This document shows positions 6,463 through 31,217 of a stretch of DNA of 64,000 nucleotides, one piece after another. The notes below the pieces were generated by a model. The model had not been told where the DNA came from, ran no database searches, and saw nothing but the letters and a program-made list of their open reading frames with translations. The DNA is from an uncultured Clostridia bacterium (GTDB taxonomy: Bacteria; Bacillota; Clostridia; TANB77; CAG-508). Within the stretch, counting starts at the first letter, position 1. Every line of letters begins with the position of its first letter. The stretch is taken from NCBI GenBank assembly GCA_944391865.1, contig CALXVD010000005.1, positions 144 to 64,143 on the forward strand, given 5' to 3'. The position numbers were made by a program, and so were the translations under genes.

Positions 6463-6786
6463 TTAATTGGATTTTATGTAAGTAAATTTATTTTTTAGGT
6501 TCGCTCCCAGAGATTTATTTATATTTTTTCTCACGCGCCCCAACTGCGCAGATTATGTAATAAAATTTTAGCTGACGCTAAATTTTCTGAACATAATCTA
6601 AGCTTGTCGGTCCCCACCCGTAACCCGCTCGAAAAATATAAATGGAAATCTCTTCGCGCTACTCTACAATTTAAAATCATCAATTTAATGAAAATTTTAA
6701 TTTTCATTAAAGGGTTAAAATATAAAAATATTAATTTTAATAATTAAAAATGTTTGCAATTAATTTAATCATGCAAATTCCAATTT
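6463..6786. repeat. Type-C intergenic element (about 324 bp): long imperfect palindrome 6509-6653 plus hairpin 6685-6710, bounded by AAATTNNAATTT-like 12-mers
   Basis: Left end taattggatttt and right end aaattccaattt (6775-6786), which overlaps the stop of ORF 6785-7129. The arms agagatttatttatattttt / aaaaatataaatggaaatctct pair around the centre tgac. Confidence 0.55.
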
Positions 6787-7129
6787 ATTTCACAAAAAAA
6801 GTTCCTAAAAATAAAATTCCTAAAATTATTGAAATTCCCCTTAATCTTTTGTATTTTGTTTCCATTTTTTTATTTATTTTATTAACACTTGTTTTATCTT
6901 TCTCCAATTTAGATAGGTAATTGCTAACTACCATTTCGGCTTCATTTATTATATATTTTTTAGGATTTTTACATACTACTTCCTTATTTTGTTTGTTTTT
7001 ACAACCTTTTTCTGATGTGTTTAAACTTTTTAATTTAACATTAGGTTTTAATATTACTATTGCCTCATCCACTATATTAGATGGTAAATTTTTAAGAACT
7101 ATCATATTTTTCATGTTTTCTGAATCCAT
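6785..7129 (-). CDS. Hypothetical tail-anchored membrane protein
   Basis: Open frame with a C-terminal hydrophobic helix ISIILGILFLGTFFV. No family was recognised. Confidence 0.4.
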   Translation of the reverse strand: MDSENMKNMIVLKNLPSNIVDEAIVILKPNVKLKSLNTSEKGCKNKQNKEVVCKNPKKYIINEAEMVVSNYLSKLEKDKTSVNKINKKMETKYKRLRGISIILGILFLGTFFVK

Positions 7130-7182
7130 TTGTATCCCCCTGAAAAAAATCTATATATAAATTTTTTCCATTTTTTCTAGGT

Positions 7183-7722
7183 TTATACATTGATAACGTT
7201 ATATATTCCATATGCTGTACATTCCGCCATATTCATAATAAGTCCTAGAGGAGTATTTTGTAATAGCTTAAAGTTGTATTGTGGTCTTTTTAAATCCTTT
7301 GCAACTATTCCTTTTATGCTAACATCTCCTACATACATATCTTTTTTATTTAACCCGCTTCCGACATTCATTTTGTGTTCAGATACTATAATCTTTCCAA
7401 TATTATTTTTTTTTGATATTGCAGCATCAATTGCAATAATAAACGATGTTTCATATGTATTATTTATATTATAAATAATTTTTTCAATATTGTTTGCAGT
7501 AACTATATTATCTAAATCTCCAATTACTTTTATATTTTCTTCATTTTTAAATAAATGTTTTAATTTATATCCAACAAGTGGTCCATAGCTGTCTCCTGTT
7601 ATCCTATCTGTTCCAATACATAAAAAAATTAATTTTGAAATCTCTATATCTTGAATTTTTCCCCTTAAAATCTTACTAAAATCATATATGAAGTTATTAT
7701 ATATTTCTTCTTTAAGTATCAC
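7183..7722 (-). CDS. yyaC: Putative sporulation protein YyaC (GPR-like endopeptidase family)
   Basis: CIGTDRITGDSYGPLVGYKL and IAIDAA motifs are typical of YyaC. Confidence 0.8.
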   Translation of the reverse strand: MILKEEIYNNFIYDFSKILRGKIQDIEISKLIFLCIGTDRITGDSYGPLVGYKLKHLFKNEENIKVIGDLDNIVTANNIEKIIYNINNTYETSFIIAIDAAISKKNNIGKIIVSEHKMNVGSGLNKKDMYVGDVSIKGIVAKDLKRPQYNFKLLQNTPLGLIMNMAECTAYGIYNVINV

Positions 7723-7791
7723 TTTTTGCTCCTCATTTTGTTTTTATAAAGTATATGTTTTTTAATCAACAAAATGATTATTTAAATCAAT

Positions 7792-7925
7792 AAATTGGAA
7801 TTTGTTTTTGTGATGTGTGAGGTGCGAAGTGCGAGGTGTGCTTTTTAGGGTTAGGCTACGTAAGGCTTACCTTAATTTCACACTTCCCACATCCCACTTC
7901 TCACTTCTCAGATAAATTACAATTT
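7792..7925 (-). repeat. Family-1 element, copy 2 (134 bp, core inverted relative to copies 3-6)
   Basis: aaattggaattt...gtgatgtgtgaggtgcgaagtgcgaggtgtgc...tacgta...cacttcccacatcccacttctcacttctc...aaattacaattt. The right 12-mer abuts the stop of ORF 7924-8175. Confidence 0.9.
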
Positions 7926-8175
7926 ACTTATTTAATTTTCTTGGAGCAATAACTATATTTATATTCTCTTTTTTATTATATTTATTTATAATATCTCCAG
8001 AAAAGCTTGCCACTTCATTAGACAACACTATTGTTGTATATTTTTGATTTACTAATTCTTTTATTTTTTCGTCAGTTTTGTCTAAATCGTTTATCTCAAA
8101 AACATCAAATCCTAAATTTTTAAAAATTCTAAAACTCTTATTGTCATTTGAAGACTTAAGCCATGAAATGCTCAT
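7924..8175 (-). CDS. Small protein resembling V-type ATPase subunit F (orphan)
   Basis: FRIFKNLGFDVFEI...KYTTIVLSNE...NIVIAP resembles the ATP-synt_F pattern. No other V-ATPase genes are nearby. Confidence 0.35.
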   Translation of the reverse strand: MSISWLKSSNDNKSFRIFKNLGFDVFEINDLDKTDEKIKELVNQKYTTIVLSNEVASFSGDIINKYNKKENINIVIAPRKLNK

Positions 8176-8270
8176 AATTTACCACCATTATTATTTTGGC
8201 TTATTTTACGCAATCTTATTCTTGTTTTTTTAGCAAAACAAATACTTTTTGACAAATTTCATATATTATT

Positions 8271-8771
8271 TTACCACTTATATATTGAATCTATGTGAAC
8301 AAATCTTATATTTTTAAATGTATATGAAGAAACCCTTCTATTATATGAATCATACGTATGTGAGGCTGTATAAATATTATTCAAGTCTAATTTATCACCA
8401 ACATTTACAACCATTAATGTATGTGAAAATTTTATTCCATCAAAACTTAGTTGAATTATATCTCCTATTTCTATTTTATCTAATCCTACTTCATTTCCTC
8501 TAGGTCCTACACTTTTATTATTTATTAAAAAATTATACAAAAATTCTACTCCAGACCAAGAAGGACTTCTATCATTTACCGAGTTATAGTACCAACCTGT
8601 ATTTTTAGTATAATTCATTATTCCTGATCCTGCATATATACATTGAGATATAAAGCTAGTACAATCTCCTCCAATAATATCAAAATTATAATAACTTGGA
8701 TTTCTGCTATATGCCCATTTCTTTGCATATTCTTTTGCTTTTGCCCTATTATATTTTTCTTTTTTCATCAT
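8271..8771 (-). CDS. Putative amidase-domain protein (Amidase_6-like)
   Basis: YNRAKAKEYAKKWAYSRNPSYYNF...GGDCTSFISQCIYAGSG. The start is trimmed to MMKKEKY. Confidence 0.6.
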   Translation of the reverse strand: MMKKEKYNRAKAKEYAKKWAYSRNPSYYNFDIIGGDCTSFISQCIYAGSGIMNYTKNTGWYYNSVNDRSPSWSGVEFLYNFLINNKSVGPRGNEVGLDKIEIGDIIQLSFDGIKFSHTLMVVNVGDKLDLNNIYTASHTYDSYNRRVSSYTFKNIRFVHIDSIYKW

Positions 8772-8930
8772 ATCACCTAATATATGATATGAATTTAGAT
8801 TTTTTGCGCTACAATTTGTCATTTTGTATTGACATTTATTTTCCATATTTTGTATAATGTACATGAAATAGGAATAAGCAGAAATGTGGCTCTGTCATCT
8901 CTTTATACAAATGATAAGGAGGTGATGCTT

Positions 8931-9044
8931 ATGGTAGAACAAATTTTGCTACATATAATAATTTTACTTTTTTCTGCACTTGTTGCAGTTACCATAATTG
9001 CTGTTGCCTTAATTATAGCTTTGGTTATAATTACTAGCAAATAA
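8931..9044 (+). CDS. Small (37 aa) hydrophobic membrane peptide
   Basis: An AAGGAGG RBS lies 8 nt before the ATG. The sequence is MVEQILLHIIILLFSALVAVTIIAVALIIALVIITSK, followed by a terminator. Confidence 0.4.
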   Translation: MVEQILLHIIILLFSALVAVTIIAVALIIALVIITSK

Positions 9045-9047
9045 AGC

Positions 9048-9086
9048 AAAACACATCTCTGCTGGTCATTAGAGATGTGTTTTAAA
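9048..9086 (+). terminator. Rho-independent terminator
   Basis: aaacacatctct / agagatgtgttt form a 12-bp stem followed by ttt. Confidence 0.6.
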
Positions 9087-9176
9087 CACCAATGATGGCA
9101 ACCACGTTTTTGTGGCTTCCTATTTCTTTTTTTATTATACCATATATTTACAATTTGTAAATAGTTTTTTCACAAA

Positions 9177-11531
9177 TTATATCTCCCTATTCAGATTTCC
9201 ATTAGTGTAATTTTCTCCTTCTAATCTCTCTCCTTTTTTATGAATATTTATTATTTGTTGTATTTCTTCTTCAGTTTCATCTAAAATATCAATTCTTATA
9301 GAATCTACATTTAAATCTTTCCATGATATTGATGTTATCTTTGAATTATAAATTAAGTTATTACAATTTACCCTATCTGTATATATTGGAAATTCAAATC
9401 CCTTTCTATCTTTTAGTTTATACGTTCCTTTTTCGCAAATTCCAGGGCAATTATTTACTCTTCCAATTGTACAATATTCTGTTGTCATTAAAAGAGTTCG
9501 ACCATAAACTATAGCTTCTTTTTTAATATTTCTGTCTAAACTTTGAATACTTTCTTTATCTAGTTCTGGTGGTAAAGTAACCTTAGATACACCTAATTTT
9601 TCTAATTCTTGGGCGGTGTAGCTATTAGATACATTTAATGTATAATTTGCTATTAAATCTAATTTCTCAATTTCATATTTTTTTAGTAATTCTAAATGAG
9701 AAAGATTAGATAATACTATTCCTTTTACATTATTTCTTAATATCTCTTTTAAATTATTTTCTATCAAGATTTCATAATTACCCTTTGTAATTGCTGGAAG
9801 TAGTACATATGTATTAAACTTTTTACTAATTTTATTTATTTTTTCCTTATTTCTTAAAAATAATCTAAATGGAATATATATATTATCTACTCCTGTTAAA
9901 TTGCTATAATTTGTATTTTCATTAAAAGTATTTAATGCTAAAGAAACTTTAGGTTCTGATGTATTATTTTTAACAGTATTTTTTGGTTTGCATTCTATAC
10001 TTATGCTCTTTTTTCTTTTAAAACTTTTTAATATCTCATCTTGCAATTCTTCTATTGCATTTCTTCTTATACTATTTATTGCACTTATTGGAAGTATTAT
10101 ATTATCATCTGCTACTACTTGAATTTCCTCAATTTCAAAAGGAGTGTTTCCAGTTTTAGAAAGTTGCTCTTTTATTCTCTCTTTGCTTATTCCATTTTTT
10201 TCTGCCTTTTTTACAATTGTTTCTTCTGTTTTTATTAATCTCGTTTTACTCAAAATATCTTCTATTCCCAATTTTATAGGTTCATTTTCTTTTAAATAAA
10301 TTTTTACATTTATTGGTCTTTTTATATTTTCTTTGCTAGAAATTTCAATTATTTCTTTATTTAGTTTTTGAGATACTGTCCTATAAACTTTATTACCTCG
10401 CAAAATCTTTCCTTTTATTCTTCCTACTGTTACAACTTGTCCAATATTTGCAAATTTAATATTGTTATTACCATTCATAAGCTCAGAAATTTTGCATGAT
10501 GAATCATTAATTGAAATACTATCTCCTAAATTTAACTCTTTTGATAGCTTAATTTTTACATGGCCTTTACTTGGATTATAACTAATCACTTCTCCTGCTT
10601 GAACACCCATATGATTTGGTCTTTTAATATACATCATATCTTTTCCTAGTTTTCCCTTTAAATATCCAGTGCTAAATCCACCTCTATTAAAAATCTGCAT
10701 TAATTTTTCTCTATCATCTTCATCTACTATATATTTTTTTCCACTTTCAGCAAGGTCAATATATTTTCTATAAATACTAGTTACTATGCCTACATATTCT
10801 TTTGATTTCATTCTTCCTTCTATTTTGAATGATTTTACTCCGGCATTAATTAAATCCGGAATAATATCTAATGTACAAACATCTTTAGAGCTTAAAAGAT
10901 AGCCGTGTTCTTGAACTTTTCCGTTATTTATTAAACTGTATGGAAGCCTACAAGTTCCAGCGCACTTACCTCTATTTCCGCTTCTTCCGCCTATCATACT
11001 ACTCATTAAACATTGTCCAGAATAGCTTATACATAGTGCCCCATGGATAAATACTTCTATATCAATTTTAGTATTTTTACAAATATGCTCTATTTCTTCT
11101 ATTGATAACTCTCTTGCAAGAACACATCTTGAAAATCCTAAACTTTCTATTTCTCTTGCTCCATCTAAATTGTATATTGTCATTTGTGTGCTACTGTGGA
11201 CTTCTAAATCTGGGAAAAATTCTATTATTCTTTTAGCAAGCCCCAAATCTTGAACAATTACTGCATCTATTCCGGCATTATATGCAAATTCTACAAGCTC
11301 AATTGCATCTTCAAACTCATCGTTTTTTATTAATATGTTTATTGTTAAATGTGTTTTTACTCCTCTTAGCTTTGCATATTCTATTGCTTGCACTAATTCT
11401 TCTTTATTAAAATTTTCGGCATTTGCTCTTGCATTAAACTCTGATGCTCCAAAATACACAGCATCTGCTCCTGTTTGAACTGCTGTTTTTAAACATTCTA
11501 AATCTCCTGCTGGAGATAATAACTCTACCAT
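9177..11531 (-). CDS. Peptidase U32 family protein (collagenase-like)
   Basis: MVELLSPAGD start behind AAAGGAG, plus the U32 signature EVFIHGALCISYSGQC. The 55-aa N-terminal extension in the ORF track reads through repeat copy 3 and is discarded. Confidence 0.85.
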   Translation of the reverse strand: MVELLSPAGDLECLKTAVQTGADAVYFGASEFNARANAENFNKEELVQAIEYAKLRGVKTHLTINILIKNDEFEDAIELVEFAYNAGIDAVIVQDLGLAKRIIEFFPDLEVHSSTQMTIYNLDGAREIESLGFSRCVLARELSIEEIEHICKNTKIDIEVFIHGALCISYSGQCLMSSMIGGRSGNRGKCAGTCRLPYSLINNGKVQEHGYLLSSKDVCTLDIIPDLINAGVKSFKIEGRMKSKEYVGIVTSIYRKYIDLAESGKKYIVDEDDREKLMQIFNRGGFSTGYLKGKLGKDMMYIKRPNHMGVQAGEVISYNPSKGHVKIKLSKELNLGDSISINDSSCKISELMNGNNNIKFANIGQVVTVGRIKGKILRGNKVYRTVSQKLNKEIIEISSKENIKRPINVKIYLKENEPIKLGIEDILSKTRLIKTEETIVKKAEKNGISKERIKEQLSKTGNTPFEIEEIQVVADDNIILPISAINSIRRNAIEELQDEILKSFKRKKSISIECKPKNTVKNNTSEPKVSLALNTFNENTNYSNLTGVDNIYIPFRLFLRNKEKINKISKKFNTYVLLPAITKGNYEILIENNLKEILRNNVKGIVLSNLSHLELLKKYEIEKLDLIANYTLNVSNSYTAQELEKLGVSKVTLPPELDKESIQSLDRNIKKEAIVYGRTLLMTTEYCTIGRVNNCPGICEKGTYKLKDRKGFEFPIYTDRVNCNNLIYNSKITSISWKDLNVDSIRIDILDETEEEIQQIINIHKKGERLEGENYTNGNLNREI

Positions 11532-11585
11532 AATATTTGCTCCTTTGTTGGTATTATATAATATATTTTTGCTATTTACTATATC

Positions 11586-11719
11586 AAATTGTAATTTATC
11601 TGAGAAGTGAGAAGTGGGATGTGGGAAGTGTGAAATTGTGGTAAGACTTGCGTAGCCTTGCCATAAAAAGCACACCTCACACTTCGCACATCGCACTTCA
11701 CAAAAACAAATTACAATTT
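11586..11719 (+). repeat. Family-1 element, copy 3 (134 bp)
   Basis: aaattgtaattt...gagaagtgagaagtgggatgtgggaagtgtgaaa...cacacctcacacttcgcacatcgcac...aaattacaattt. Confidence 0.9.
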
Positions 11720-11782
11720 ATTTTTATTTGAATTTTTAAAAAATTTGTGATATATTTCCATTTATAGAAAGAGGGAATCCAA

Positions 11783-12511
11783 ATGAAAATATGTACAAAA
11801 AAATTTGATATTAGTTTTTGTGATGTTGGTGAAAATAATCACTTAACAAATAAAGGAATTTTAAGAATGATGCAAGAAATTGCTGGCATTCATAGTGGTA
11901 TTGCAGGGTATGGCTTAAATGACATTCCCAAAACTGGTCTTGCATGGCTTCTTTTAAATTGGAAATTAAGAGTTTTTCTTCGCCCTAAATGGGGAGAAAC
12001 TTTAACTATAAATACTTGGAGCAGATCTCAAAATGCACTTTTCTCATATAGAGATTTAGAAGTTTATGACAGTAAAAATAATTTAGTTGCAATAGCTACA
12101 TCAAAATGGCTTTTATTTGATGTTAACAAGCAAGCTATCGCTAAAACTACCCCTGAAATGAGAGAAAAATTTGAGAGCACTGATAAGGCAGTTTTTGAAG
12201 AAAAATTTAATGAAAAATTAAAAGAACCAGAAAATTCTGAGTTCGTTTTAGAATATAAAATTGAAAGAAGAGATATAGATACAAACCACCATGTAAACAA
12301 CTTAAATTACCTAGATTTTGCATATGAGGCTTTGCCAGAAGATATATATAAAAATGGGGAATTCAATAATGTTGAAATTATGTATAAGCACGAGGCAAAA
12401 TTGGGTGATACACTTTTTGTTTATTATGCACAAACTGAACAAAATGAGCATATTATTACTATTAAAGATAAAGAAACAGGTAATCTTCATAGCATAATAA
12501 AACTATATTAA
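11783..12511 (+). CDS. Acyl-[acyl-carrier-protein] thioesterase
   Basis: Tandem hot-dog layout with DTNHHVNNLNYLDFA, typical of the Acyl-ACP_TE family. Confidence 0.8.
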   Translation: MKICTKKFDISFCDVGENNHLTNKGILRMMQEIAGIHSGIAGYGLNDIPKTGLAWLLLNWKLRVFLRPKWGETLTINTWSRSQNALFSYRDLEVYDSKNNLVAIATSKWLLFDVNKQAIAKTTPEMREKFESTDKAVFEEKFNEKLKEPENSEFVLEYKIERRDIDTNHHVNNLNYLDFAYEALPEDIYKNGEFNNVEIMYKHEAKLGDTLFVYYAQTEQNEHIITIKDKETGNLHSIIKLY

Positions 12512-12518
12512 AATTTTA

Positions 12519-12558
12519 AAACGCAGATTTATAATATTTATAAATCTGCGTTATTTTT
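12519..12558. terminator. Bidirectional terminator between convergent genes
   Basis: aacgcagattta / taaatctgcgtt stem flanked by A-run and T-run. Confidence 0.65.
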
Positions 12559-13093
12559 ATCCTATTTTTTCTATATCTATTCTTGCATTTGGATAGGTAA
12601 TGTCTTCAATAGAAACTCCACCTAAATTCAAAACATCACCTGCATTTAGTCTTAAAATAACTGTGCTAGTTAAAGTCATTCTGTTGGGAATATTTTCTCT
12701 TAAAATTGGACTTTCGTTAAATGTAGAATCTATTCCTTCATTATTTACTATTAATACCGCATTAAAATTAAATGTTGCTATTGCATCTTGGGTTCCAAAT
12801 AATTGATATGATATTTGGTAAATTCCATCTTCATTTATTATTATATCTTGGCTTCCTTCTTCATGGCTAATTGCATTTCCTACTACTATATCATTTTGGC
12901 TAAATCTTATTCTTGCAACTCCTACTTCAGTATTGTCACCTTGAACAGCTATCGCTGTTAGAATATCTTTTTGTTCCATATTGTTTTGGGAAAAAATTGC
13001 TAAAAAAATTAAAAACACTACAAATATTGCAATAACCGTACCACATAAAACTTTGCATAATAATTCTTTATTACATTTGCATTCTATATTCAT
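12557..13093 (-). CDS. Membrane-anchored hypothetical protein, possibly with a BclA-C/C1q-like beta-sandwich C-terminal domain
   Basis: N-terminal TM helix (VIAIFVVFLIFLAIF). The C-terminal part resembles C1q-like spore-surface domains only loosely. Confidence 0.35.
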   Translation of the reverse strand: MNIECKCNKELLCKVLCGTVIAIFVVFLIFLAIFSQNNMEQKDILTAIAVQGDNTEVGVARIRFSQNDIVVGNAISHEEGSQDIIINEDGIYQISYQLFGTQDAIATFNFNAVLIVNNEGIDSTFNESPILRENIPNRMTLTSTVILRLNAGDVLNLGGVSIEDITYPNARIDIEKIG

Positions 13094-13151
13094 TATAATT
13101 CCCCCTAGTTTATTATATGGGAAATTAATTTTTATGTGAGTTAGTATAGTT

Positions 13152-13190
13152 AAAAAAAACAGAGTAGTTTATAACTTCTACTCTGTTTTG
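13152..13190 (-). terminator. Rho-independent terminator downstream of spo0A
   Basis: The minus strand reads acagagtag-aagttataa-ctactctgt followed by tttttttt. Confidence 0.7.
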
Positions 13191-13209
13191 ACTATGTTAG
13201 TTCCAATTA

Positions 13210-14028
13210 TTAAGCACTCTTTAATTCTAGTCTTAGTTTATCAGCTATCATTGCTATAAATTCACTATTTGTAGGCTTTCCTTTAGCAGCAGAAATTGTA
13301 TAACCAAATATTCTTTCTACTACTGCCTGTTCTCCTCTAGACCATGCTACTTCTATTGCATGGCGTATTGCTCTTTCTACTCTACTTGGGGTAGTTTTAA
13401 ATTTTTTTGCTATCTCTGGATATAACTGTTTTGTTATTTGATTTATCATATCTATATCATTAATAACCATAACTATTGCTTCTCTTAAATATTGATAACC
13501 TTTTATATGTGCTGGGACTCCCAATTCATGAATTATATTTGTAACTAATGCCTCCAAATTATCTTCGTCTTTTTTACTTTCTTCAGAAATTTCTATGTAA
13601 GGAACTTTTATCTCTCTATTAATAAAATTCTTTTGATTAGGTGCAGGTTGAAAATATTTTATGTCTTTTATTCTTTTTATTAGTAACTCTATATCAAAAG
13701 GTTTAACCACATAATATTCTGCCCCTAAATTTATTGCTTGTTGTGTAATTTTTGCTTGTCCCACTGCCGAAAGCATTATACAAATTGGTTTTTTGTTCAT
13801 CTTGGCTACTGAAATTCTTTCTAATACACCTAGCCCATCTAAATATGGCATTATAACATCTAATAAAGCAATATCTGGTTCTGTATTAATTATCATATCA
13901 CATGCTTCTTTACCATCTTTAGCAATGCCAATAACCTCCATATCTTCTTCTTTTTCCAAATAACTAGCTAAAGTCATTGCAAAGTCAGGATTATCGTCTG
14001 CAATTAAGACTGTAATTTTTTCTTTCAA
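13210..14028 (-). CDS. spo0A: Sporulation master regulator Spo0A
   Basis: Receiver domain (LIADDN...[11 protein letters not shown]) plus the Spo0A-specific C-terminal domain ([18 protein letters not shown]). Confidence 0.95.
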
Positions 14029-14142
14029 GTTTATACCCCCTAAAAATAAATTTGTAAATTTTTTACAATTCGAATTATAATATGATTTTACGAATATTGC
14101 AATAGTTTTTTGGAAATTTTTTCTAATTTTTCGTAAAAGTAT

Positions 14143-14802: not shown

Positions 14803-14944
14803 AAATTGTAATTTGTATGGTTAATTAATTGCAAATGTTGTAGGGGTCGCCGCCCACGGCGACCCGCATATCAATATTTAAGGGTCGCCCTGGGGTGCGA
14901 CCCCTACAGATTTAAAATTAATTTTCTCACATAAATTACCATTT
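14803..14944. repeat. Type-B GC-rich double-hairpin element bounded by the same 12-mers as family 1
   Basis: aaattgtaattt...tgtaGGGGTCGCCG-ccca-CGGCGACCCgc...GGGTCGCcctggggtGCGACCCctaca...aaattaccattt. The right 12-mer overlaps the stop of the 14943-16205 gene. Confidence 0.75.
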
Positions 14945-16205
14945 AGTTCATTCCTGCAGTGTAACCTGTAGACCACGCTATCTGTAAATTAAAACCTCCT
15001 GTTAAGCTATCTACATCTATTATTTCCCCTGCAAAATATAAACCTTTTACTATTTTTGATTCCATTGTTTTAGGGTTTATTTCTTTTATATTTATTCCAC
15101 CTGAAGTTATTATTGCTTCTTCTATTGGTCTTACACCATTTATATTAATCTCTAAACATTTAAGAACTTTTACTATTTTAGCTCTTTCGTCTTTTGTTAT
15201 TTCATTTACTTTTTTGTATGGATTAATGCCTGTTTTTTCTATTACAATAGGTATTAATTTTTGTGGGAGCAATTTATTTAAACTGTTTTTAAATTCTTTA
15301 TTTTTTTCATTTTCAAAATCTCTTAATATTCTTAAATCTAATTTTTCATCTGATAGTGCAGGCTTTAAATCAATTTCTAATTTAATGCTATTATTTTTAA
15401 ATAATTCTTCTATATTTTTATATCTAATTAAATACGCAGAAGCACTTAATATTATTGGTCCAGATACCCCAAAATGTGTAAATAGCATTTCTCCGAAATC
15501 TTGATATATAATTTTATCATTATTTTTTAATTTTATCGAAACGTTTTTAAGTGATAAACCTTGTAGTTTAGAACATATGCTATCTTTTGAGATTAGTGGC
15601 ACTAGTGATGGCTTTATTTTTGTAACTGTGTGACCTAATTCTTTTGCTATTTTATATCCATCTCCAGTAGAACCTGTTACTGGATAACTTTTTCCTCCTG
15701 TTGCTAAAATTATTTTATCAGCTTTTAATTCATTACTTATTTTGTTGCCGTGAGCACCTACATCATTTATTTTTACTCCTTCTGCTTTTCCATCTTTTAC
15801 AACTATTTTTTCTACTTTTGTATTTGTTAAAATTTTAACATTTAATTTTTTTAGAATTTTTAGTAATGCTTCTAGCACATCTATTGATTTATCTGATACA
15901 GGAAATATTCTTCCTCCTCTTTCTACCTTTGTTTTAACTCCTTCTTTTTCTAATAAATTAACAATGTCATTGTTATTAAAATTGTTTAAAGCTCCATATA
16001 AAAATTTTCCATTATTTGGTGTATTTTCAATAAAACCATTTAAGTCTGTACTGTTTGTTATGTTACATCTTCCTTTTCCTGTAATAAGTAGCTTCTTGCC
16101 ACAAGAACTCATCTTTTCTATTATTGTTACTTTGTTTCCACATTCTGCTGCTGATATTCCAGCAATTATTCCTGCCGGTCCGCCGCCTATTATAATAACA
16201 TTCAT
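14943..16205 (-). CDS. NAD(P)/FAD-dependent oxidoreductase, HI0933/YhiN (BaiN-like) family
   Basis: VIIIGGGPAGIIAG dinucleotide-binding N-terminus and the C-terminal GLYFAGEIIDVDSLTGGFNLQ motif. Confidence 0.8.
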   Translation of the reverse strand: MNVIIIGGGPAGIIAGISAAECGNKVTIIEKMSSCGKKLLITGKGRCNITNSTDLNGFIENTPNNGKFLYGALNNFNNNDIVNLLEKEGVKTKVERGGRIFPVSDKSIDVLEALLKILKKLNVKILTNTKVEKIVVKDGKAEGVKINDVGAHGNKISNELKADKIILATGGKSYPVTGSTGDGYKIAKELGHTVTKIKPSLVPLISKDSICSKLQGLSLKNVSIKLKNNDKIIYQDFGEMLFTHFGVSGPIILSASAYLIRYKNIEELFKNNSIKLEIDLKPALSDEKLDLRILRDFENEKNKEFKNSLNKLLPQKLIPIVIEKTGINPYKKVNEITKDERAKIVKVLKCLEININGVRPIEEAIITSGGINIKEINPKTMESKIVKGLYFAGEIIDVDSLTGGFNLQIAWSTGYTAGMN

Positions 16206-21817: not shown

Positions 21818-21822
21818 TTGTA

Positions 21823-22516: not shown

Positions 22517-23047
22517 ATGAAATTAACACAAAATAGTGAAATATTAGCAGAAAAAAAAGCTTTAATATTATATATTTTAAATAAAGTATCAAAGCCAATA
22601 AGCAATGATGCCCTTTTAAACTTGGTTATTTCAATAGATAATATGAATTATTTTTATTTTCAACAATTTTTATTAGATTTATTAGAAAATAAATATATTA
22701 TAAATTATGAAAAAGATGGAGAAATGTTATATGAATTAACTTCTGAAGGAAAGCAGGCTTTAAACTTAGTAAAAGATATAATACCTGGTATTACTAAATT
22801 CAGAGTAGATAATAGTTTTAAAGAAACTTTAGGTGAATTTCAAAATGAAGTTTCAGTAACAAGTGATTTTATTCCACATAGTGAACACGATTATAGTGTT
22901 AAATGCAAAATAGTAGAAAACAATCAAATTCTATTTGAACTACAAATTTATGCTGGTTCAAGAGAACAAGCAAAAGCAATTTCAGATAACTGGAATAATA
23001 ACGCAGAAGAGCTATACCCTAAAATTTTAGAAATTTTAACTAAATAG
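22517..23047 (+). CDS. DUF4364-family protein
   Basis: AEKKALILYILNKV...ISNDALLNLV N-terminal winged-helix-like pattern typical of DUF4364. Confidence 0.55.
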   Translation: MKLTQNSEILAEKKALILYILNKVSKPISNDALLNLVISIDNMNYFYFQQFLLDLLENKYIINYEKDGEMLYELTSEGKQALNLVKDIIPGITKFRVDNSFKETLGEFQNEVSVTSDFIPHSEHDYSVKCKIVENNQILFELQIYAGSREQAKAISDNWNNNAEELYPKILEILTK

Positions 23048-23051
23048 AAAC

Positions 23052-23108
23052 AAAAAGGGACAGACCCCAATCGTTTCAAAATGAAACGATTGGGGTCTGT
23101 CCCTTTTT
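23052..23108. terminator. Perfect 27-bp-stem hairpin acting as a bidirectional terminator (REP-like)
   Basis: aaaaagggacagaccccaatcgtttca-aaa-tgaaacgattggggtctgtcccttttt lies between convergent genes. Confidence 0.7.
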
Positions 23109-23112
23109 ATTT

Positions 23113-23899
23113 CTATTTTAATTTTTGCCTTACATATTCATATAATACAACTCCTGTTGCAACTGCAGCATTTAAGCTTTCTGTTTTGCCAAGCATAGGT
23201 ATTTTTATTTTTTTATCTGCCATTTCCAAAACTTCTTTTGATACTCCATTTGCTTCATTTCCGATTACTATCGCCATTTTCTTAAATTCTACATCGTAAA
23301 TACTTTCTTGTGTTTCAAGTGATGTTGCCACTACTTTGAATTTATGTTTTTTTAATTCTTTTAAAGTTGTTTCTAAATTTTCACTTTCTATTACATTTAC
23401 TCTAAATATTGCTCCCATTGTAGAACGCACAACTTTGGGATTAAATACATCCCCACTTCTTTTAGATACAATTACTTGCGTAAGTCCGAACGCTATCTAT
23501 AGTTCTTAGTATTGTTCCTAAATTTCCAGGATCTTGTATATCATCTAGTACTACTATTATATCTTCATCAAATTTAATATCTTTGTCTGTATTTTTTTTG
23601 TCAATTACAGCTAAAAGCCCTTGAGGATTTTGTACATCTGTAATATTACTAAATACTTTTTCATCAACATATACACAATTGTATTTTGCAATTTCATATA
23701 AAATATTTTGATTAATCTCACCAGTTTTTACACAATTATCACACACCACAATAGTGTTTATGTCTGCTTTTTCTTCTATTGCTTCTTTTATTAGTTTAAC
23801 TCCTTCTATAATGTATTTTCCACTAATATCTCTTTGCTTTTTCTCTTTTAATTTTCTAATTTTTTTAATTGTTTCATTATCTTTACTTGTAATAATCAT
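23113..23899 (-). CDS. TrmH/SpoU-family RNA 2'-O-methyltransferase. Pieces are joined by a +1 shift at CGG 23486-23488.
   Basis: The junction agc gtt CGG Act tac restores DPGNLGTILRTIDSV-G-LTQVIVSKRSGDVFNPKVVRSTMGAIFR. Confidence 0.8.
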
Positions 23900-23917
23900 G
23901 GCTTTCCTTTCTTAAAT

Positions 23918-24051
23918 AAATTGGAATTTGAATGTGAAGTGAGAAGTGGGATGTGGGAAGTGTGAAACTAGGGTAAGCCTTACGTAGCCTATCCCTAAAA
24001 AGCACACCTCACACTTCGCACCTCACACATCACAACAACAAATTACAATTT
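23918..24051 (+). repeat. Family-1 element, copy 4 (134 bp)
   Basis: aaattggaattt...gaagtgagaagtgggatgtgggaagtgtgaaa...tacgta...cacacctcacacttcgcacctcacac...aaattacaattt. The right 12-mer overlaps the mfd stop. Confidence 0.9.
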
Positions 24052-27000
24052 ATATATTTAAAAATTCATTAATTTCCTTTAATACATCATTCTTTTCTAA
24101 TTTGTATGTAATATATGGTTCTTTTGCTGGTGAAAATTTAATTCTATTATTAAATAAGTTTATTAATTTATCAATATCTATTGCAAGATTTTCTGGTTCA
24201 AATGTGAATATGATATTATTTTGTTTCTGCAAAACTTTTATTATTCCTTTTTCCTTGCATTTCTCTTTTATTTTTGCAATTTCTAATAAATTATATACTT
24301 CTTTTGGAAATTTTCCAAATCTGTCTGTTATGTCTTCTTCTATATTTTTTATATCTTCTTCATTTCTGCATAAAGCAATATTTTGATATACCTCAATTTT
24401 TTGACTACTGTTTTCTATATAGTCATCTGGTATATAGCTTGATACATTTATATCAATACTTATATCAGGTTCTTCTTTTTCTTCTATTCCTTTCATTTCT
24501 TTTACAACTTCATCCAATAATTTGCAATAAGTTTCATATCCTACTTGATCCATATGACCATGTTGCATTTCTCCAATTAAGCTTCCTGCTCCTCTAATCT
24601 CTAAATCTCTCATTGCTATTTTAAATCCTGATCCAAATTCGGTAAATTCTTTTATTGCTTTTAGCCTCTTTTCGGCTACTTCGTTAATTAGCTTATCTCT
24701 TTTATATGTGATATACGCATATGCTTGTTTATTGCTTCTTCCTACTCTTCCTCTAATTTGATAAAGCTGTGCTAAACCTAGCCTATCTGCATCTTCTACT
24801 ATTATTGTGTTTGCATTTGGAATATCAATTCCTGATTCTAATATGGTTGTGCATATTAAAACATTTATTTCTTTATTTACGAAATCTAGCATTATATCTT
24901 CTAGTTCTTTACCAGACATTTTTCCATGTGCAAAACCTATTTTTGCTTCTGGAACTAATTCTGATATTTCTCTTGCTTTTCTTTCTATTGTTTCTACTTT
25001 ATTATATAGATAAAATACTTGACCTTTTCTCTCGAGTTCTTTAGTTATTGCTTCTTTTATTACTTCTTTATCATATTCTAATACATATGTTTGAACTGGC
25101 AATCTGTTTTGTGGAGGTTCATAAAGACATGACATATCTCTAATTCCTACTATTGACATATGGAGTGTTCTAGGTATTGGCGTAGCAGTCATACTTAATA
25201 CATCTACATTTGTTTTTAACTTCTTTATTTTTTCTTTATCTTTTACCCCAAACCTATGCTCTTCATCTATTATTAAAAATCCTAAATTTTTGAATTCTAC
25301 GTCTTTACTAAGTAATCTATGGGTTCCTATTATAATATCTATTTCTCCTAGTTTTAATTTCTTTACAATTTGTTCTTGTTCTTTTTTAGTTCTAAATCTA
25401 TTTAAAAGTTCTATCCTTATAGGATAATTTTTCATTCTTTCTTTAAAAGCTTCATATTGTTGGTTTGCAAGTATTGTTGTTGGAACCAAATAACAAACCT
25501 GTTTTTGATCCATACAAGCTTTAAATGCACCTCTTATTGCAACTTCTGTTTTTCCGGTATCCTACGTCTCCACAAAGTAATCTATCCATTGGTTTTGGTT
25601 TTTCCATATCTTTTTTTAGCTCATCAATTGCTCGCATCTGATCATCTGTTTCTTGGAATTCAAAGCTATTATCAAATTCTTTTTGCCATTCCGTATCTTT
25701 AGAAAAAGCATATCCTTTTATTTTTTCTCTTTTTGCATACAATTCTATTAAATCACGGGCAACTTCTCTTAAGTTTGATTTTACTTTTTGTTTTGTATTT
25801 GCCCATTCTTTGCTACCTAATCTATTTATTTTTGGTGCTCTATCTCCAACACCTATATATTTTCTAATGTTGTCTAAATTAGTAGTTGGAATATAAAGAA
25901 TGTCGTCATCTCTATATTTTATTTTTATATAATCTTTTGTTACTCCATCTGCTTTTATAGTATTTACACCAACAAATTGTCCTATACCATTGGTTTTGTG
26001 AACTACATAATCTCCGTATTTTTAAATCAGAAAATATTACTGTTTCTCCTTGTTTAAATTCTCCGCTTAATTTTCTTCTTCTTTTTGGAGCTGTAAACAA
26101 TTCGTGTGCTGATATTACTAATAAATTAAAATCATACGACTCAAATCCAGAAGATAACTCTCCTTGTTCTAAAATAATATTTTTTAAACTTGTTCCTAAC
26201 TTTTCTTCTAATAGCTGTCTTAACTGTTTTTCGTTATTTTTATTTCCAGTTAAAATTACAACTGTTTTTTCTTTTTCTCTAGCTTTTTGTATTTCCTCAA
26301 TACATAAATCCATTGAACTACGAAAAAAGTTTACCTCCCTATAGCTAAAGCTATATCCGTTTCTTTTTGCATGCATACTTTGTTTATCTACAAAACCTAT
26401 ATCTTGTTTTTCTAAATATATTGTTTGTAATTCTTTTATAACTTCTACAAATTTTATATAGTCTCTTAAATTTGTAATTGCCTCAGGTACTTCTCTTCCG
26501 TTTTTCAATTAATGTTTTTACTATATTTGCATTATCTTTTACAATATTTTCTGACCTTGCTTTTATTTTTTCTATCTCATCTAAAAATATTATAAAATTA
26601 TCTTTCAAATAATCTAATATTGTTTGCTTATTATTATAGAAGCTATTAAAATACTTGTCTATTTTATTTATATAATTACCTTGTTTTATCTCCTCTATAT
26701 CTTCAGTAAGTCTCGTACTATCTGCACAATTTTTTTCTATTTTGCTAGCAACGCTTTCTAAACTATTTTCCAATACAAACTCTGTTGCAGGATATATTAT
26801 AGCTTTTTTTATTTTGTCTGTTGACCTTTGAGATTCTACATCAAACTCACGAATTGAATCTATTTCGTCGCCCCAAAGTTCAACTCTTATACCTTTTTTT
26901 GAAGAAACTGCTATATCAATTATGCCCCCTCTTATGCTGTATTCTGCAACTTCTTCTACTAAATCTTTTCTTTCGTAGCCTAATTCAGTAAGTTTTCTCT

Positions 27001-27454
27001 TTATATCATCTAAATTTATACTTGTATCCTGCTTTAATTCAAATATATTTTTATATAAAGTTTCTTTAGAAACTATTTCTTGAGATGCTGCTTCAATAGT
27101 AGTTACAATAACCTTTGCTTTTTTATTATAAATACTATTTAAGCATCTTATTCTATCTAAAGATATATCTTTACTTTCAGCAAGATAGTCATATGCCAAA
27201 ATCTCTCTTCTTGGAAAATATGCTACATCATCGCAAAAGTATTGTAAATCTTTTATAATTTTTCTTGCTTGAAGTTCATTATATGTAATTATGCATATAG
27301 GTTTTTCTGCGTAAAAGTATGTTGAATAAGCAAAGTGAACCTTTGCAACATCAGTAAGACCTGATAACATTATAGGGTTAGTACCAGATTTTACATTTTT
27401 TATATAATCATTAAATTTTTTAAAATTAGGCAATACCTTTACAATCTCACTCAT
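24050..27454 (-). CDS. mfd: Transcription-repair coupling factor Mfd. Four ORF pieces are joined by +1 shifts at CGG 26498-26500, 26014-26016 and 25554-25556.
   Basis: The junctions restore IEK-G-REVPEA, DLKI-G-DYVVHKTNGIG and Walker A GDVGY-G-KTEVAIRGAF. DEEH box and helicase C motifs lie downstream. Confidence 0.9.
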
Positions 27455-27465
27455 AAAATATCCTT

Positions 27466-28425
27466 CCTGATTTTGGGGACGGTTCCATTTTTCCTGTTAT
27501 TTAGGGACACCCCATATTATGATTTTAAAGTTTCCATTTTCCACTTAGAAATATTTAATTTTTTCATTATATCTACATATGTAATTTTATATCCTTGCTT
27601 TAAGTATTTTACTAGTTCTCTAGCTTCACTTTTATCGCATAATATTTCTTCTGTTTTTTTGTTTGAAACCTCTTCATACTCTCTAATTCTTGATTCTAAA
27701 ATTATTTCTTTGTTAATATCTATATCCATAAAAATATCTGTATTTTTGTCTTCTTCTAAAATTAAGTTATAATCGTTTTTGTCTAATATATCCTTCAAAC
27801 AATCTATTGAAATTTTATCTTTTTTATTAAAGTAATCATTATAGCTAGAATACTTATACTCTCCACTTTTGCTAACTATGTTTGCTTTTACTGGATTTAG
27901 GTGTATGTATTGTATACATTTAATTAAGTATCTTTTATCATAAATAGGCTCACTTAAATATCTATCTCTAAATACATATCCTACTCTATTATTTTCCATA
28001 AAATTATAATATTGTGCATATGACATATTTACAATGTGCATAAAACCTGACATCTCTTCTATTTTATCTGTAAAGATTAACATATGCGCATGGTTGTTCA
28101 TAATACAAAAAGCAACAATTTCAATTTTATATTTTTTTCTATAGATATTTAGTAATTCTAAATACCTTTTTATATAAATTTCCTTTTTAAAAATATGTTC
28201 TTTTTTTATTCCTTGAATCATTACATGAAAAAATGATGTATTTAATGATTTTCTTGCTATGCGAGGCATATAATCATCTCTCTTTCCTTTTTTTATTATG
28301 TGCCCCCATATGTATAAATCTTATACATCCTTTTCATTTTAACATATTTTTCTAATTCTTTCAACCTGAAAATTGGGGACGGTTCCAAAAATCCAGGCTT
28401 TTTGGAACCGTCCCCAATTTTCAGG
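27466..28425 (-). mobile_element. IS200-like / REP-associated tyrosine transposase unit with flanking GGGGACGGTTCC repeats
   Basis: CCTGAnnnTTGGGGACGGTTCC occurs at 27466-27486 and 28365-28386, with an inverted copy at 28404-28425. The last two form a perfect 27-bp hairpin. Confidence 0.65.
27517..28269 (-). CDS. Y1 (HUH) transposase, IS200-like/RAYT family, with a C-terminal HTH-like tail
   Basis: The N-terminal core includes NNHAHMLI (HUH motif) and YIHLNPVKANIV (catalytic Tyr region). Confidence 0.75.
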   Translation of the reverse strand: MPRIARKSLNTSFFHVMIQGIKKEHIFKKEIYIKRYLELLNIYRKKYKIEIVAFCIMNNHAHMLIFTDKIEEMSGFMHIVNMSYAQYYNFMENNRVGYVFRDRYLSEPIYDKRYLIKCIQYIHLNPVKANIVSKSGEYKYSSYNDYFNKKDKISIDCLKDILDKNDYNLILEEDKNTDIFMDIDINKEIILESRIREYEEVSNKKTEEILCDKSEARELVKYLKQGYKITYVDIMKKLNISKWKMETLKS

Positions 28426-29290
28426 TTTCTTTAAATCCTTCTCCAAATACTTCTCTTGCGTTTGATATTATTATAAATGCGTTAGGATCCATGTCACTTA
28501 TTATTTGCATTATTTCTCTTACTTCTCCCCTTGATACTACACACATAAGAATATTCTTTTCTTCTCCTTTATACATTCCTGTTCCTTTCAAGGAAGTACT
28601 TCCTCTTCTTACTGTTATGCTAATTTCTTTTGCTATTTCTTTATATTTAGGTGATATTACAAGTATCATTTTTGCAAAATCGATACCTTCAAAAAATATG
28701 TCAAGCATTTTTCCCATTATATATATAGCAATTGCTGAATATAAACCAATTTCTAGCTCTTTAAAAAATACTACGTTCAAAGCTACAATAATTGTATCTA
28801 ATAAAGCAAGTAAGTTACTTATTCTAACATTTGGTTTAAATGCTTTTATTATTTGTGTTAGAAGGTCTGTGCCACCAGTAGATGCATTTGCTTTTAGTAC
28901 AATAGCTGTACCTATTCCAGCTATTATTCCTCCATATATACACCCCAAAACTCTATCTGTTGTAAGAGGCTCAAATTTATCAAAGAAGTTTAGAAAAAAA
29001 GATAAGGATATTGTTCCTAGCAGTGCATTTAAGAAGAATTTTTTCCCATTTTTTATTGCTGATATTATAAATAAAGGAATGTTTAAAGCAAAAACGGTAG
29101 TACCTAGTGGTATTTCAAACAAATAATATGTAATTGTTGCAATTCCTGAAAATCCACCAGCTGACAATTGGTTTGGAAGTAAAAGTAAGCTGGTTGCAAT
29201 AGCAATAAAAGCAGTTCCAATTATAATTTGTACTGCTTGCTTAATAAGATGTTTAATTTTAACTATTTCTCTTATAGTTTTAAATTTCAT
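28421..29290 (-). CDS. YitT-family membrane protein (DUF2179 C-terminal domain)
   Basis: Multi-pass N-terminal region followed by the C-terminal GTGMYKGEEKNILMCVVSRGEVREI pattern. Confidence 0.75.
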   Translation of the reverse strand: MKFKTIREIVKIKHLIKQAVQIIIGTAFIAIATSLLLLPNQLSAGGFSGIATITYYLFEIPLGTTVFALNIPLFIISAIKNGKKFFLNALLGTISLSFFLNFFDKFEPLTTDRVLGCIYGGIIAGIGTAIVLKANASTGGTDLLTQIIKAFKPNVRISNLLALLDTIIVALNVVFFKELEIGLYSAIAIYIMGKMLDIFFEGIDFAKMILVISPKYKEIAKEISITVRRGSTSLKGTGMYKGEEKNILMCVVSRGEVREIMQIISDMDPNAFIIISNAREVFGEGFKET

Positions 29291-29331
29291 ATAAAAACAC
29301 CCATATATATTATGGATGTTTTTGGTAATAA

Positions 29332-30385
29332 CTATTCATCTAAAAAATCTTTATATGTTTTTAAAATATTTATTTCAAATTTACCGGGTCTAATTGTTTT
29401 TACTTGTTTTATTTTTACGTCTAAATCATATAATTCTTTTAACTTTTTAATATTTTCTTTTTTGTGTCCAACTACATTGTTTACATTTTCTGGATTTGTT
29501 TTTATTTCTATTTCTTTTACTTTTACATTAAATTTTTTTATTTTTTCTACTATGCTATCATACCATATGCTATCTTCTACTAGCTGTCCAAAGGCTTCGT
29601 GATATGGTCCGAGCAACTACTTCACTCTTTTCATTTTCTGGACTACATATTAAATCTGTGCTTTGAAGTCCCATTCTAATTACTGTTATTTTTTTATGGG
29701 TAAAATAATAATAAATTTCTTTGCATCTTTCTACCGCTTGAAGCACAGTAAGTGGTTCATACTCTCCGTTTTTATATTCTTTTTCTAGTTCTGTATTTTT
29801 TATTACTAAAACTGGGTAAAGCCTTACTATTTTTGGCTTAAGTTTTGCCAAATCTCTTGCTGTGTTTAATTCATCTAATTTAGTACTTTCTGGAAGTCCT
29901 ATCATCATTTGATGACCTAAATCAAAACCATATCTTCTAATTAACTTAGAAGCCTTCTTAACATCTTGGAACGTATGACCTCTTTTACACTTTTTTAATA
30001 TATAATCATTAGTAGATTGTACGCCTAATTCTATTGTTTTTACTCCATATTTTTTTAATAATTTTAATTTTTCTACATCTATATAGTCTGGTCTTGTTGA
30101 TACTCTTATAGAATTTACTTTTTTATTTTTTACATACTCGTATGCCACTTGCAATAGTTCTTCTTGTTTTTCTTTTTCTATACCTGTAAAACTTCCTCCA
30201 AAAAAAGCAATTTCTCTATATGTATTTTCTTTAAAAATTTTTAAATATTCTTCTATAGTATTTTTTACATCTTCTTTTGTAACTCTTTTAGTTTGTCCAC
30301 TTATGCTCTTTTGGTTACAAAATGTGCAATCGTTTGGGCAACCTAAGTGTGGTACAAATATTGGAATTATATATTGATGTTTCAT
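29332..30385 (-). CDS. Radical SAM protein (ELP3-like family). Pieces are joined by a +1 shift at CGG 29609-29611.
   Basis: CPNDCTFC is the CxxxCxxC cluster motif. The junction gtt gct CGG Acc ata joins SEVVA-G-PYHEAFGQLVEDS. Confidence 0.75.
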
Positions 30386-31063
30386 TACTTCCTCCTTTTT
30401 TCTAATGCTATTCTTGCTGCTTCCATTTCTGCTGCTTTTTTGGTTTTTCCTTCCCCCTTAGCCAAAACTTCTCCATCACATTTTACTTCTACAATAAATG
30501 TTTTGTCATGGTCTGGTCCTTTTGTATCTAATAAGATGTATTCTATTTTTACATTTCCTTTTACTTGCAATTTTTCTTGAAGCACTGTTTTATAATCTTT
30601 CATTCCCACGTGTTTACTTGCAATTTCTATTGGCTCACTTAAATTATCTATTATAAATTTTTTTGCTTCTTCTAAATTTGAATCTTTGTATATTGCTGCA
30701 ATAACAGCTTCTACGCTATCAGCTAAAATTGCGGGTTTTTTATTTCCGTTTGCATCTTATTTCGCTTTTCCCTAAATATAGAAAATCACTAAAATTATGC
30801 TTAATTGCAACTTTATATAGACTATCTTCACAAACAACTGTTGCTCTAACTTTAGTCATTTCCCCTTCTTTTAATTTTTGATAATTTTTATATAGATAAT
30901 CGCTAACTACAAATTCTAATATACTGTCTCCTAAGAATTCCAACTTCTCATTGCTCTCTACTTTATGGTCATGCGCATAAGAAGTATGCGTTAGTGCTGT
31001 TTTTAATAGATTTATATCATTAAATTTATGTCCTATATCTTCTTCAAATTTTTCTATATTCAT
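30385..31063 (-). CDS. rnc: Ribonuclease III. Pieces are joined by a +1 shift at CGG 30746-30748.
   Basis: NEKLEFLGDSILE catalytic signature. The junction tgc aaa CGG Aaa taa restores GKSEIRCK-G-NKKPAILADSVEAVIAAIY, followed by the dsRBD. The N-terminal ORF extension through repeat copy 5 is discarded. Confidence 0.85.
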
Positions 31064-31083
31064 TCCTTCATCTCCTTTTATAT

Positions 31084-31217
31084 AAATTGGAATTTGAATG
31101 GGAAGTGAGAAGTGGGATGTGGGAAGTGTGAAATTAGGGTAAGCCTTACGTAGCCTAGCCATAAAAAGCACACCTCACACTTCACACCTCTCACCTCACA
31201 AAAATAAATTACAATTT
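31084..31217 (+). repeat. Family-1 element, copy 5 (134 bp)
   Basis: Same architecture as the other copies. The right 12-mer aaattacaattt encodes the last two codons and the stop of murG (K L *). Confidence 0.9.

Follow-up and report, generated by a model that had tools for sequence, protein, structure and literature searches.

A probable superfamily of non-coding hairpin repeats with a shared AT-rich foot and exchangeable cores in uncultured Clostridia

The stretch of 64,000 nucleotides analysed here, which we refer to as the window, comes from an uncultured Clostridia bacterium (GenBank assembly GCA_944391865.1, contig CALXVD010000005.1, positions 144–64,143) and contains a series of palindromic modules which begin and end with the same short AT-rich sequence and often lie directly on the stop codons of ordinary genes. 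This shared end, which we call the foot, is a 12–13 bp AT-rich terminal inverted repeat (AAATTGTAATTTG...CAAATTACAATTT) that is perfect in most copies. On balance we favour the view that the modules belong to one superfamily of non-coding hairpin repeats in the style of the repetitive extragenic palindromic (REP) sequences, bacterial interspersed mosaic elements (BIMEs) and Neisseria intergenic mosaic elements (NIMEs), with exchangeable cores and a foot that is probably the part recognised.

The window has a G+C content of 28% and carries most of its genes on the minus strand; chicken-gut metagenomes hold sequence that is near-identical to it, and the core we refer to as family-1 is found in several metagenome-assembled genomes (MAGs) of uncultured Clostridia, including the one we call bin48. 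Our comparison covered ~530 kb of related low-GC loci (L-numbered), or ~600 kb with the window included, and for strain comparisons contigs from 12 public sequencing runs (X-numbered) were aligned to five stretches. Exact-protein look-ups for the neighbours of the second and fourth family-1 copies returned conspecific contigs in which the modules were identical. No module was matched by Rfam at the gathering thresholds, where the sole hit in the window was the RT-14 RNA (49069–49227), and a text search of the literature for the two 12-mers which make up the feet yielded no bacterial-repeat paper in which either occurs.

The foot and the cores it encloses

The initial annotation drew attention to the 12-mers at the ends of the modules, all of which we found where they had been described, and we asked how often such sequences arise in AT-rich DNA. 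The motif AAATTNNAATTT occurs 16 times in the window where 3.3 are expected (shuffle maximum 8), and the stricter AAATTGKAATTT occurs 11 times where 0.40 are expected (shuffle maximum 2). All 11 copies of the latter are the ends of palindromic modules, and the ends are thus a specific feature and not a product of the base composition. Four further matches with a TT or AT centre (5370, 6692, 41074 and 62115) resemble the AT-rich background.

The two 12-mers of a module form a terminal inverted repeat, AAATTG[G/T]AATTT, with a single polymorphic position, and they pair with each other at the base of a long hairpin. The mixed GG/AC feet of the window are unusual, as relatives have either GT/AC or GG/CC and the third family-1 copy of the window has GT/AC. 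Family-1 copies in bin48, which were found by core homology alone, have the feet AAATTGTAATTT/AAATTACAATTT, and those of two other MAGs have AAATAATAATTT/AAATTATTATTT, in which two positions are altered on both sides. This both-sided change means that left-right complementarity has been kept though the self-palindromy of each 12-mer has been lost. The modules also fold far more stably than shuffled sequences (z from -3.7 to -9.4). An RNAalifold alignment of 25 family-1 copies had invariant core stems and misaligned ends, and gave no usable covariation statistic. A list of foot pairs that had been chosen for their complementarity was discarded as circular, and the possibilities that the foot is a transcription-factor box or a dif/Xer site were rejected on reading the sequence.

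At least seven unrelated core types lie between the same feet in the ~530 kb of related loci. These include family-1, several REP dimers of the GTAG type, a GGTGAATTCAGGACAGTCCC type, a type with AGAGATTAGAGG arms, mini-hairpins of 31–41 nt which are hardly more than two feet, and mosaics in which a conserved linker joins two footed hairpins (one such 241-nt unit is found at four listed places, in L001, L007, L039 and L058). The initial annotation called the cores unrelated, and this is correct for their middles; next to the ends they are not wholly so, as the foot-adjacent positions 13–18 (GTATGA, GAATGA, ATCTGA) are common to family-1 and REP-type modules. In four metagenomes the k-mer depth of family-1 is 200–300 times that of the flanks, which indicates hundreds of family-1 copies.

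We note that the mosaic linker is ~80 nt long (AAAGTAATTGTTGATTTTTTGTTGA...CACTTTTCACTTTTAG; L001:5196, L007:7000, L039:2289, L058:1293 and L003:4580) and contains TTGACT followed 17–19 nt on by TTTACT/TACTAT, and judging from these motifs it might carry a promoter. The linker-side feet of the mosaics are altered in their outer 2–4 bases, which hints that the strictly conserved element end may be TGTAATTT...AAATTACA.

Modules, stop codons and insertion context

The window holds six family-1 copies (c1–c6), one REP-dimer module (type B), one composite (type C) and one REP-type module cut by the window edge. All nine lie in the first 38 kb and none in the last 26 kb (38400–64000). Their neighbours are ordinary genes, namely transketolase, the S6–SSB–S18 cluster, U32 peptidase, spo0A, mfd, murG and mini-RNase III, and Pfam matches in syntenic contigs back the gene identities next to the modules.

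Five of the modules sit flush against the stop of the upstream gene and leave a spacer of 11–300 nt on their other side. The right feet of type C (6464–6786; left foot degenerate, TAATTGGATTTT; right foot AAATTCCAATTT), c2 (7792–7925), type B (14803–14944) and c4 (23918–24051) overlap by their last two bases the stops of the minus-strand open reading frames (ORFs) 6785–7129, 7924–8175 and 14943–16205 and of the C-terminal mfd ORF at 24050, respectively, and in c5 (31084–31217) murG (31209) ends with K-L-stop inside the right foot, all as the initial annotation had it. On the opposite side, the left foot of c4 is 18 nt from the next start codon and that of c5 is 11 nt from the start of mini-RNase III. 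Type B consists of feet, carrier arms and a GTAG-type REP dimer (GTAGGGGTCGCC...), with a predicted RNA fold of -67.5 kcal/mol (z -9.4), and its site is empty in L088 and L089; type C has a subterminal ~40 nt in common with type B.

The remaining copies are placed differently. Copy c3 (11586–11719), with perfectly symmetric feet (GT/AC), lies between divergent genes and 55 nt upstream of the U32 peptidase start. Copy c1 (2965–3078) has the left foot AAATTGTGATTT and no right foot, adjoins the rpsR terminator hairpin and is conserved in L086, and c6 (38208–38329), which the initial annotation had missed, has only its left foot, the gene-proximal foot being degenerate, and is 14 nt upstream of the start of the minus-strand ORF 37006–38193. 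What had been described as a solo 12-mer pair at positions 46–66 is the end of a REP-type module truncated by the window edge (1–66; AAATTGCAATTTGTGTAATTTTAATGAGAAAATATATTTTAAAATCTATAGGGGAGGACGACC on the reverse strand), with the foot (AAATTGCAATTT at 55–66, 7 nt past the stop of the C-terminal transketolase ORF at 73–75) and the adjoining ~50 nt of the module, and L086 holds a complete REP module at the matching place.

As a separate observation on c2, the module is identical at 134/134 positions to its counterpart in L083 (407–540), a contig which is overall 93% identical to the window; the downstream flank visibly diverges in L083, and the module is better conserved than its surroundings.

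The strong association of module ends with gene 3' ends and stop codons proposed in the initial annotation extends well beyond the window. For the 78 foot ends towards which an ORF of ≥70 codons runs, 25 stops lie at offset -1, 14 at +6 (K-L-stop), six deeper within the module and 33 upstream by 4–38 nt, which places 39/78 incoming genes at -1 or +6. When restricted to unique flanks, 28/53 genes terminate in the foot. Genes run into feet in all three frames, and the foot supplies TAA in two of these, once at the junction with a preceding T and again 6 nt in, on either strand; in the third frame further stops are reached inside the module, also on either strand. The junction TAA comes largely from the element itself and the context it prefers, since feet without a nearby gene are also preceded by a pyrimidine (91%; T 68%, C 23%), with AT as the commonest preceding dinucleotide. 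These data fit modules that inserted at the stop codon or slightly within the gene, the foot then acting as a terminator of the frame, and selection which spares ribosome-binding sites and promoters probably contributes to the flush placement. A true target preference for the stop region and such selection are not separable with these data.

The preferred flank context is symmetric (A-Y/foot...foot/R-T), and the modules show no orientation bias with respect to the upstream gene (14 vs 18). Seven identical copies in bin48 have unrelated bases at -1 and +1, from which we infer that there is no target duplication outside the foot. A search of the 1–6 nt outside the feet found nothing beyond a shared AT preference, where a 2-bp AT duplication could hide in the palindromic context.

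The symmetric flanks resemble a typical target consensus, and would suit the view that the modules are ordinary miniature inverted-repeat transposable elements (MITEs), that is, families with common ends moved in trans by a DDE transposase encoded elsewhere, for which coincident sites would result from target preference plus selection. MITEs would likewise be expected to have the terminal inverted repeats of 12–13 bp and the lengths of 31–340 nt seen here, to lie in both orientations and to be numerous, with bursts of identical copies, and known examples (Correia/NEMIS, ERIC, RUP and bcr1) similarly have terminal inverted repeats, span 70–300 bp, form hairpins, lie next to or overlap gene ends and occur in both orientations. 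However, identical copies with unrelated flanking bases and no target duplication are difficult to reconcile with such transposition, and here one pair of ends encloses many interiors which are exchanged at fixed sites. No parent insertion sequence (IS) with foot ends enclosing a transposase was found in the ~600 kb, where only multi-gene stretches between separate modules have such ends; the IS5/IS1182-like element of the window was considered as a parent and its ends show no resemblance to the foot. Independent insertions would furthermore have to strike the same nucleotide repeatedly, even in strains with 99.5% identical flanks, and we regard this explanation as unlikely.

The initial annotation also saw evidence of inversion in copy c2, where the family-1 core is reversed relative to c3–c6 between GG...AC ends like those of c4 and c5. 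The reversal is real, but the unchanged ends amount to one base per end. As the two 12-mers are an inverted repeat with a single G/T polymorphic position, the ends barely record orientation, and the chance that three mixed-foot copies have the same polarity is ~0.25. We therefore do not find in-situ inversion of the core between unchanged ends compelling. No flipping was seen among seven conspecific contigs and a 93% relative, all in the same orientation, and no strand-switch joint was seen at c4 in the run contigs; in both cases the contigs drop rare variants, and flipping at low frequency may have escaped notice.

An integron-like or invertible arrangement, in which each foot would be a dyad-symmetric crossover site with a 2-bp centre, would suit the flipped c2 core with its same end polymorphism. 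The foot is near-palindromic (AAATT-NN-AATTT), the two feet are inverted like hix-type sites, and as in attC sites an imperfect palindrome, conserved at the base of its stem and variable at its top, is found at gene 3' ends. The attC analogy of the initial annotation nevertheless fails on both sequence and context: on reading, the feet (AAATTGKAATTT/AAATTMCAATTT) show no RYYYAAC...GTTRRRY core sites, their self-palindromy is lost in the AAATAATAATTT variant where left-right complementarity is kept, and the modules are dispersed among fixed, syntenic housekeeping genes with no cassette array. Mixed GG/AC centres would block crossover by a serine recombinase, and the conspecific contigs all have the same orientation. 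No integrase was found among the window ORFs scanned, and the only recombinases among them were a serine-recombinase fragment and an IS transposase, both in a separate mobile island. It is very improbable that the modules are sites of this kind.

Core turnover and its possible causes

The cores between the feet differ between relatives at five of the sites occupied in the window. At c2, after an 83-aa gene, the family-1 core of the window gives way to a truncated REP-type core in L086 and a REP dimer in L089, and the site is empty in L088; at the type-C site, after a 114-aa gene, L086 has a mini-hairpin plus linker, L088 a single REP, and L089 is empty. Upstream of the U32 peptidase gene, family-1 (c3) is replaced by different cores in L085/L086, L088 and L089. 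In all four species, each with a core of its own, the right foot AAATTACAATTT has kept its place ~55 nt ahead of the start codon, and in L085 the module coincides with a break in synteny. At the mfd stop (c4) L040 has type B, L092 a REP without foot and L093 an empty site, and at the murG stop (c5) L092 has a single REP.

Replacement was also seen between strains. At L022:4473–4606, bin48 has family-1 where an X30 contig (five mismatches over 1,122 nt of flank) has a core we call type E, with the switch after foot+G. In a second X30 contig the match resumes one base ahead of the right foot, and X28 and X33 show a similar type-E junction. At L006:3961, a 31-nt mini-hairpin in X21, X22 and X26 is replaced in an X30 contig with 363 identical flank bases by another core (...CGTTTCAC followed by C and the foot). 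In both of these strain-level sites, where the flanks are 99.5–100% identical, the core switches exactly at the inner edge of the foot. A further replacement is found at c1 in an X7 contig (~93% identical over the aligned stretch), where 2971–3072 is replaced by the 19 nt GAATTTGTATAATTACAAT. The contigs come from the Logan build, which is assembled from 31-mers, and a common foot of 13 nt alone could not produce core-swap joins. A comparison of occupied and empty sites in the 12 runs over five stretches found core replacements only and no clean excision or empty allele.

Part of the cassette exchange proposed in the initial annotation is consequently supported, in that some exchange of cores at fixed ends does occur, at c2, c3, c4, c5 and the type-C site and in the two strain-level swaps. 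Nothing suggests that genes move as cassettes, as the neighbours are syntenic housekeeping genes and only the non-coding cores turn over. Cores may be exchanged by site-specific recombination, through short-homology conversion or by renewed insertion at a hot spot.

It should be noted that the switch points always fall where homology ends (the foot plus 1–6 nt), as might be expected if host recombination alone were responsible, with template switching at stalled forks or short-homology gene conversion replacing and occasionally inverting cores and no enzyme acting on the foot. Long quasi-palindromes are known substrates for template switching, hundreds of dispersed hairpins with common 12–18 bp ends are available, mosaic half-modules exist, and the synteny break at c3 coincides with a module. 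Such homology is, however, shorter than the length usually needed for efficient RecA recombination, despite which swaps occur between strains that have diverged by only 0.5%, and host recombination leaves unexplained the colonisation of new sites, the flank preference and the compensatory change of both feet. We judge it improbable as the whole explanation.

In the REP/BIME/NIME-style superfamily that we favour, the foot pairs as the base of a long imperfect hairpin around the variable core, and the mobilising or recombining machinery would recognise the foot and not the core. Modules would enter AT-rich sites in either orientation without detectable target duplication, and once a foot had been placed the site would persist while the core between the feet was replaced over time, perhaps by re-insertion beside a resident foot plus deletion, or by recombination between the feet of different copies. 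Insertion at a stop codon, or a few codons inside it, would still end the gene because the foot supplies stops, and these foot-borne stops would leave modules flush on stops in combination with selection that removes hits in coding sequence, ribosome-binding sites and promoters. The enzyme would most likely be a transposase of the HUH/Y1 class that recognises single-stranded hairpins.

The only candidate for this enzyme, on the basis of its sequence, is a gene on the minus strand at 27517–28269, which encodes a 250-aa homologue of Y1 (HUH) transposases similar to the REP-associated tyrosine transposases (RAYTs) and is single-copy and syntenic. RAYT-like genes were found by tblastn with E. coli RayT, and a regular-expression search for IS200-like motifs in the loci found nothing. 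The protein matches Pfam Y1_Tnp (5.9e-10) and NCBIfam REP_Tyr_transpos (1.1e-18; 67.5 bits, below the cut-off of 80), and contains the motifs H-A-H and YIHLNPVKA. In a 74% relative (L092) the gene has the same neighbours as in the window, YitT on one side and mfd on the other, and in a 68% relative (L093) it is immediately upstream of mfd; a domesticated RAYT behaves in this way and an IS does not. Conserved CCTGAAAATTGGGGACGG hairpins flank the gene, including a near-perfect palindrome with TTGGGGACGGTTCC arms just upstream (28363–28427) and a partner half-site downstream (27473–27508), and its GGGACGGTTC motif occurs within footed REP-type modules of bin48. A link between the RAYT-like protein and the foot can be put forward only tentatively, since the flanking hairpins have no foot and are not dispersed in the window.

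We have also considered a more specific proposal, a 'pad and cassette' system for hairpins at gene 3' ends, with the foot as a docking site that can be used repeatedly. An enzyme dedicated to it, for which the domesticated RAYT-like Y1 transposase is a possibility, would recognise the foot of a hairpin folded from single-stranded DNA, cut at the inner edge of the foot and swap whole cores in either orientation between hundreds of pads, the 31-nt mini-hairpins being empty pads. This we think doubtful.

Several observations weigh against the superfamily reading as a whole. No enzyme is tied to the foot, and the RAYT-flanking hairpins (GGGGACGG type) are footless and are found in the window only beside the gene and not as a dispersed family. 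The seven contigs from the window's own species show no variation at all, and no exact pair of empty and filled sites with >99% flank identity was recovered. The core swaps could stem from short-homology recombination with no dedicated enzyme. Finally, the comparison rests largely on MAGs and short metagenome contigs which break at modules, and in the runs we examined the contigs terminate at almost every one. MITEs and host recombination are both possible explanations of the modules, and the attC/invertase explanation fails its defining tests.

Related repeat systems and neighbouring features

The closest known systems are the Neisseria NIME/dRS3 and the E. coli BIME/REP repeats. NIMEs reportedly consist of variable RS repeats which are each bounded by a short dRS3 inverted repeat. 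In both NIMEs and the modules described here, a short conserved repeat bounds many unrelated non-coding segments of 50–150 bp in intergenic arrays and mosaics with a high copy number, at loci associated with recombination and with local variability. The two are alike in architecture only: the bounding repeat is the AT-rich AAATTGTAATTT here and ATTCCC-N8-GGGAAT in dRS3, and in the low-GC Clostridia host the two repeats of a module pair with each other as the foot of a single hairpin and the modules are usually single and located on stop codons inside operons. Mosaic Neisseria regions are mentioned in PMC3733652.

The REP, BIME and REPIN–RAYT systems of E. coli and Pseudomonas are similar in having extragenic hairpins without target duplication, mosaics with linker motifs, strain variation at fixed loci and a location at gene 3' ends. 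They also have inverted doublets within a long hairpin (as do the strongly folding modules here), which are dispersed in extragenic positions or at gene ends, and both GTAG-type REP dimers and a single-copy, syntenic RAYT-like gene are present in our data. REP termini can supply stop codons, and in Anabaena variabilis and Halothiobacillus neapolitanus REP dimers are found within longer carrier palindromes (PMC3733652). The conserved head of REP units (GTAG or CGTC) is present in the REP-type cores (GTAGGGGTCGCC...), whereas family-1, type E and the mini-hairpins share only the foot, and it is the AT-rich 12-mer foot that unites GTAG and non-GTAG cores. Further differences are that the family-1 arms are ~50 nt and not individually palindromic, and that the RAYT-like gene here has footless hairpins of a different type on its flanks and scores below the family cut-off.

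As far as we could find, the literature has no description of the AT-rich foot common to these modules, of their breadth of cores, of their placement on stop codons or of core swaps at the strain level. Such repeat families influence how operons are expressed, how stable mRNAs are and how genomes rearrange, and metagenome assemblies break at them. The architecture here is unusually clean, with one short foot, interchangeable cores, placement on stop codons and turnover between near-identical strains, and this makes the modules a tractable case in which to ask whether mosaics of the REP/BIME/NIME type are moved by a dedicated enzyme or by host recombination. The foot is also a simple marker for finding modules, and possibly strain-level polymorphisms, in a gut Clostridia clade about which little is known.

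The last 26 kb of the window contains a mobile island (43900–55400), a 2490-aa ORF (55257–62729) and an ORF that contains an array of 15-nt tandem repeats (41398–41622). The island includes an intact IS5/IS1182-like transposase (52025–53335), two degenerate transposase copies which are 98–100% identical to each other (44018–44803 and 53535–54459), a fragment of a large serine recombinase (46208–46915) and duplicated GH94 gene fragments (45754–46254 and 54548–55321). Between 47907 and 51772 the window also has what is likely to be a diversity-generating retroelement, judging from a reverse transcriptase (49360–50373; Pfam RVT_1), the Rfam RT-14 RNA on the minus strand (49069–49227), a DUF6076 protein (47907–49067), a protein of the FGE-sulfatase fold (50852–51772) and template/variable-like repeats that are 82–85% identical (49223–49345 and 50862–50999).

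We also note that the mfd gene of the window consists of three ORFs (26483–27454, 25912–26508 and 24050–25513), with no module in the gap. The same split recurs in contigs of 99.9–100% identity from three samples, and in relatives mfd is found as two ORFs (L092 4812–8224; L093 966–4371). Other genes called as two overlapping or adjacent ORFs are both transketolase halves and a SpoU-type methyltransferase (73–1006, 2060–2891 and 23113–23899), and the transketolase and SpoU-type splits are also called in some relatives (L086 and L088) and not in L089. Two further sequences in the window without feet are of note. The first, a palindrome at 23042–23118, has 37-nt arms which are 97% complementary around a GGGACAGACCCC centre, spans from the stop of the plus-strand ORF 22517–23047 to the 3' end of the minus-strand ORF 23113–23430, and is probably a bidirectional terminator. 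The second is a REP-like sequence (GTAGGGGCG...CGCCC) at 1995–2050, in the short spacer between the N-terminal transketolase ORF and a PHP-domain gene.

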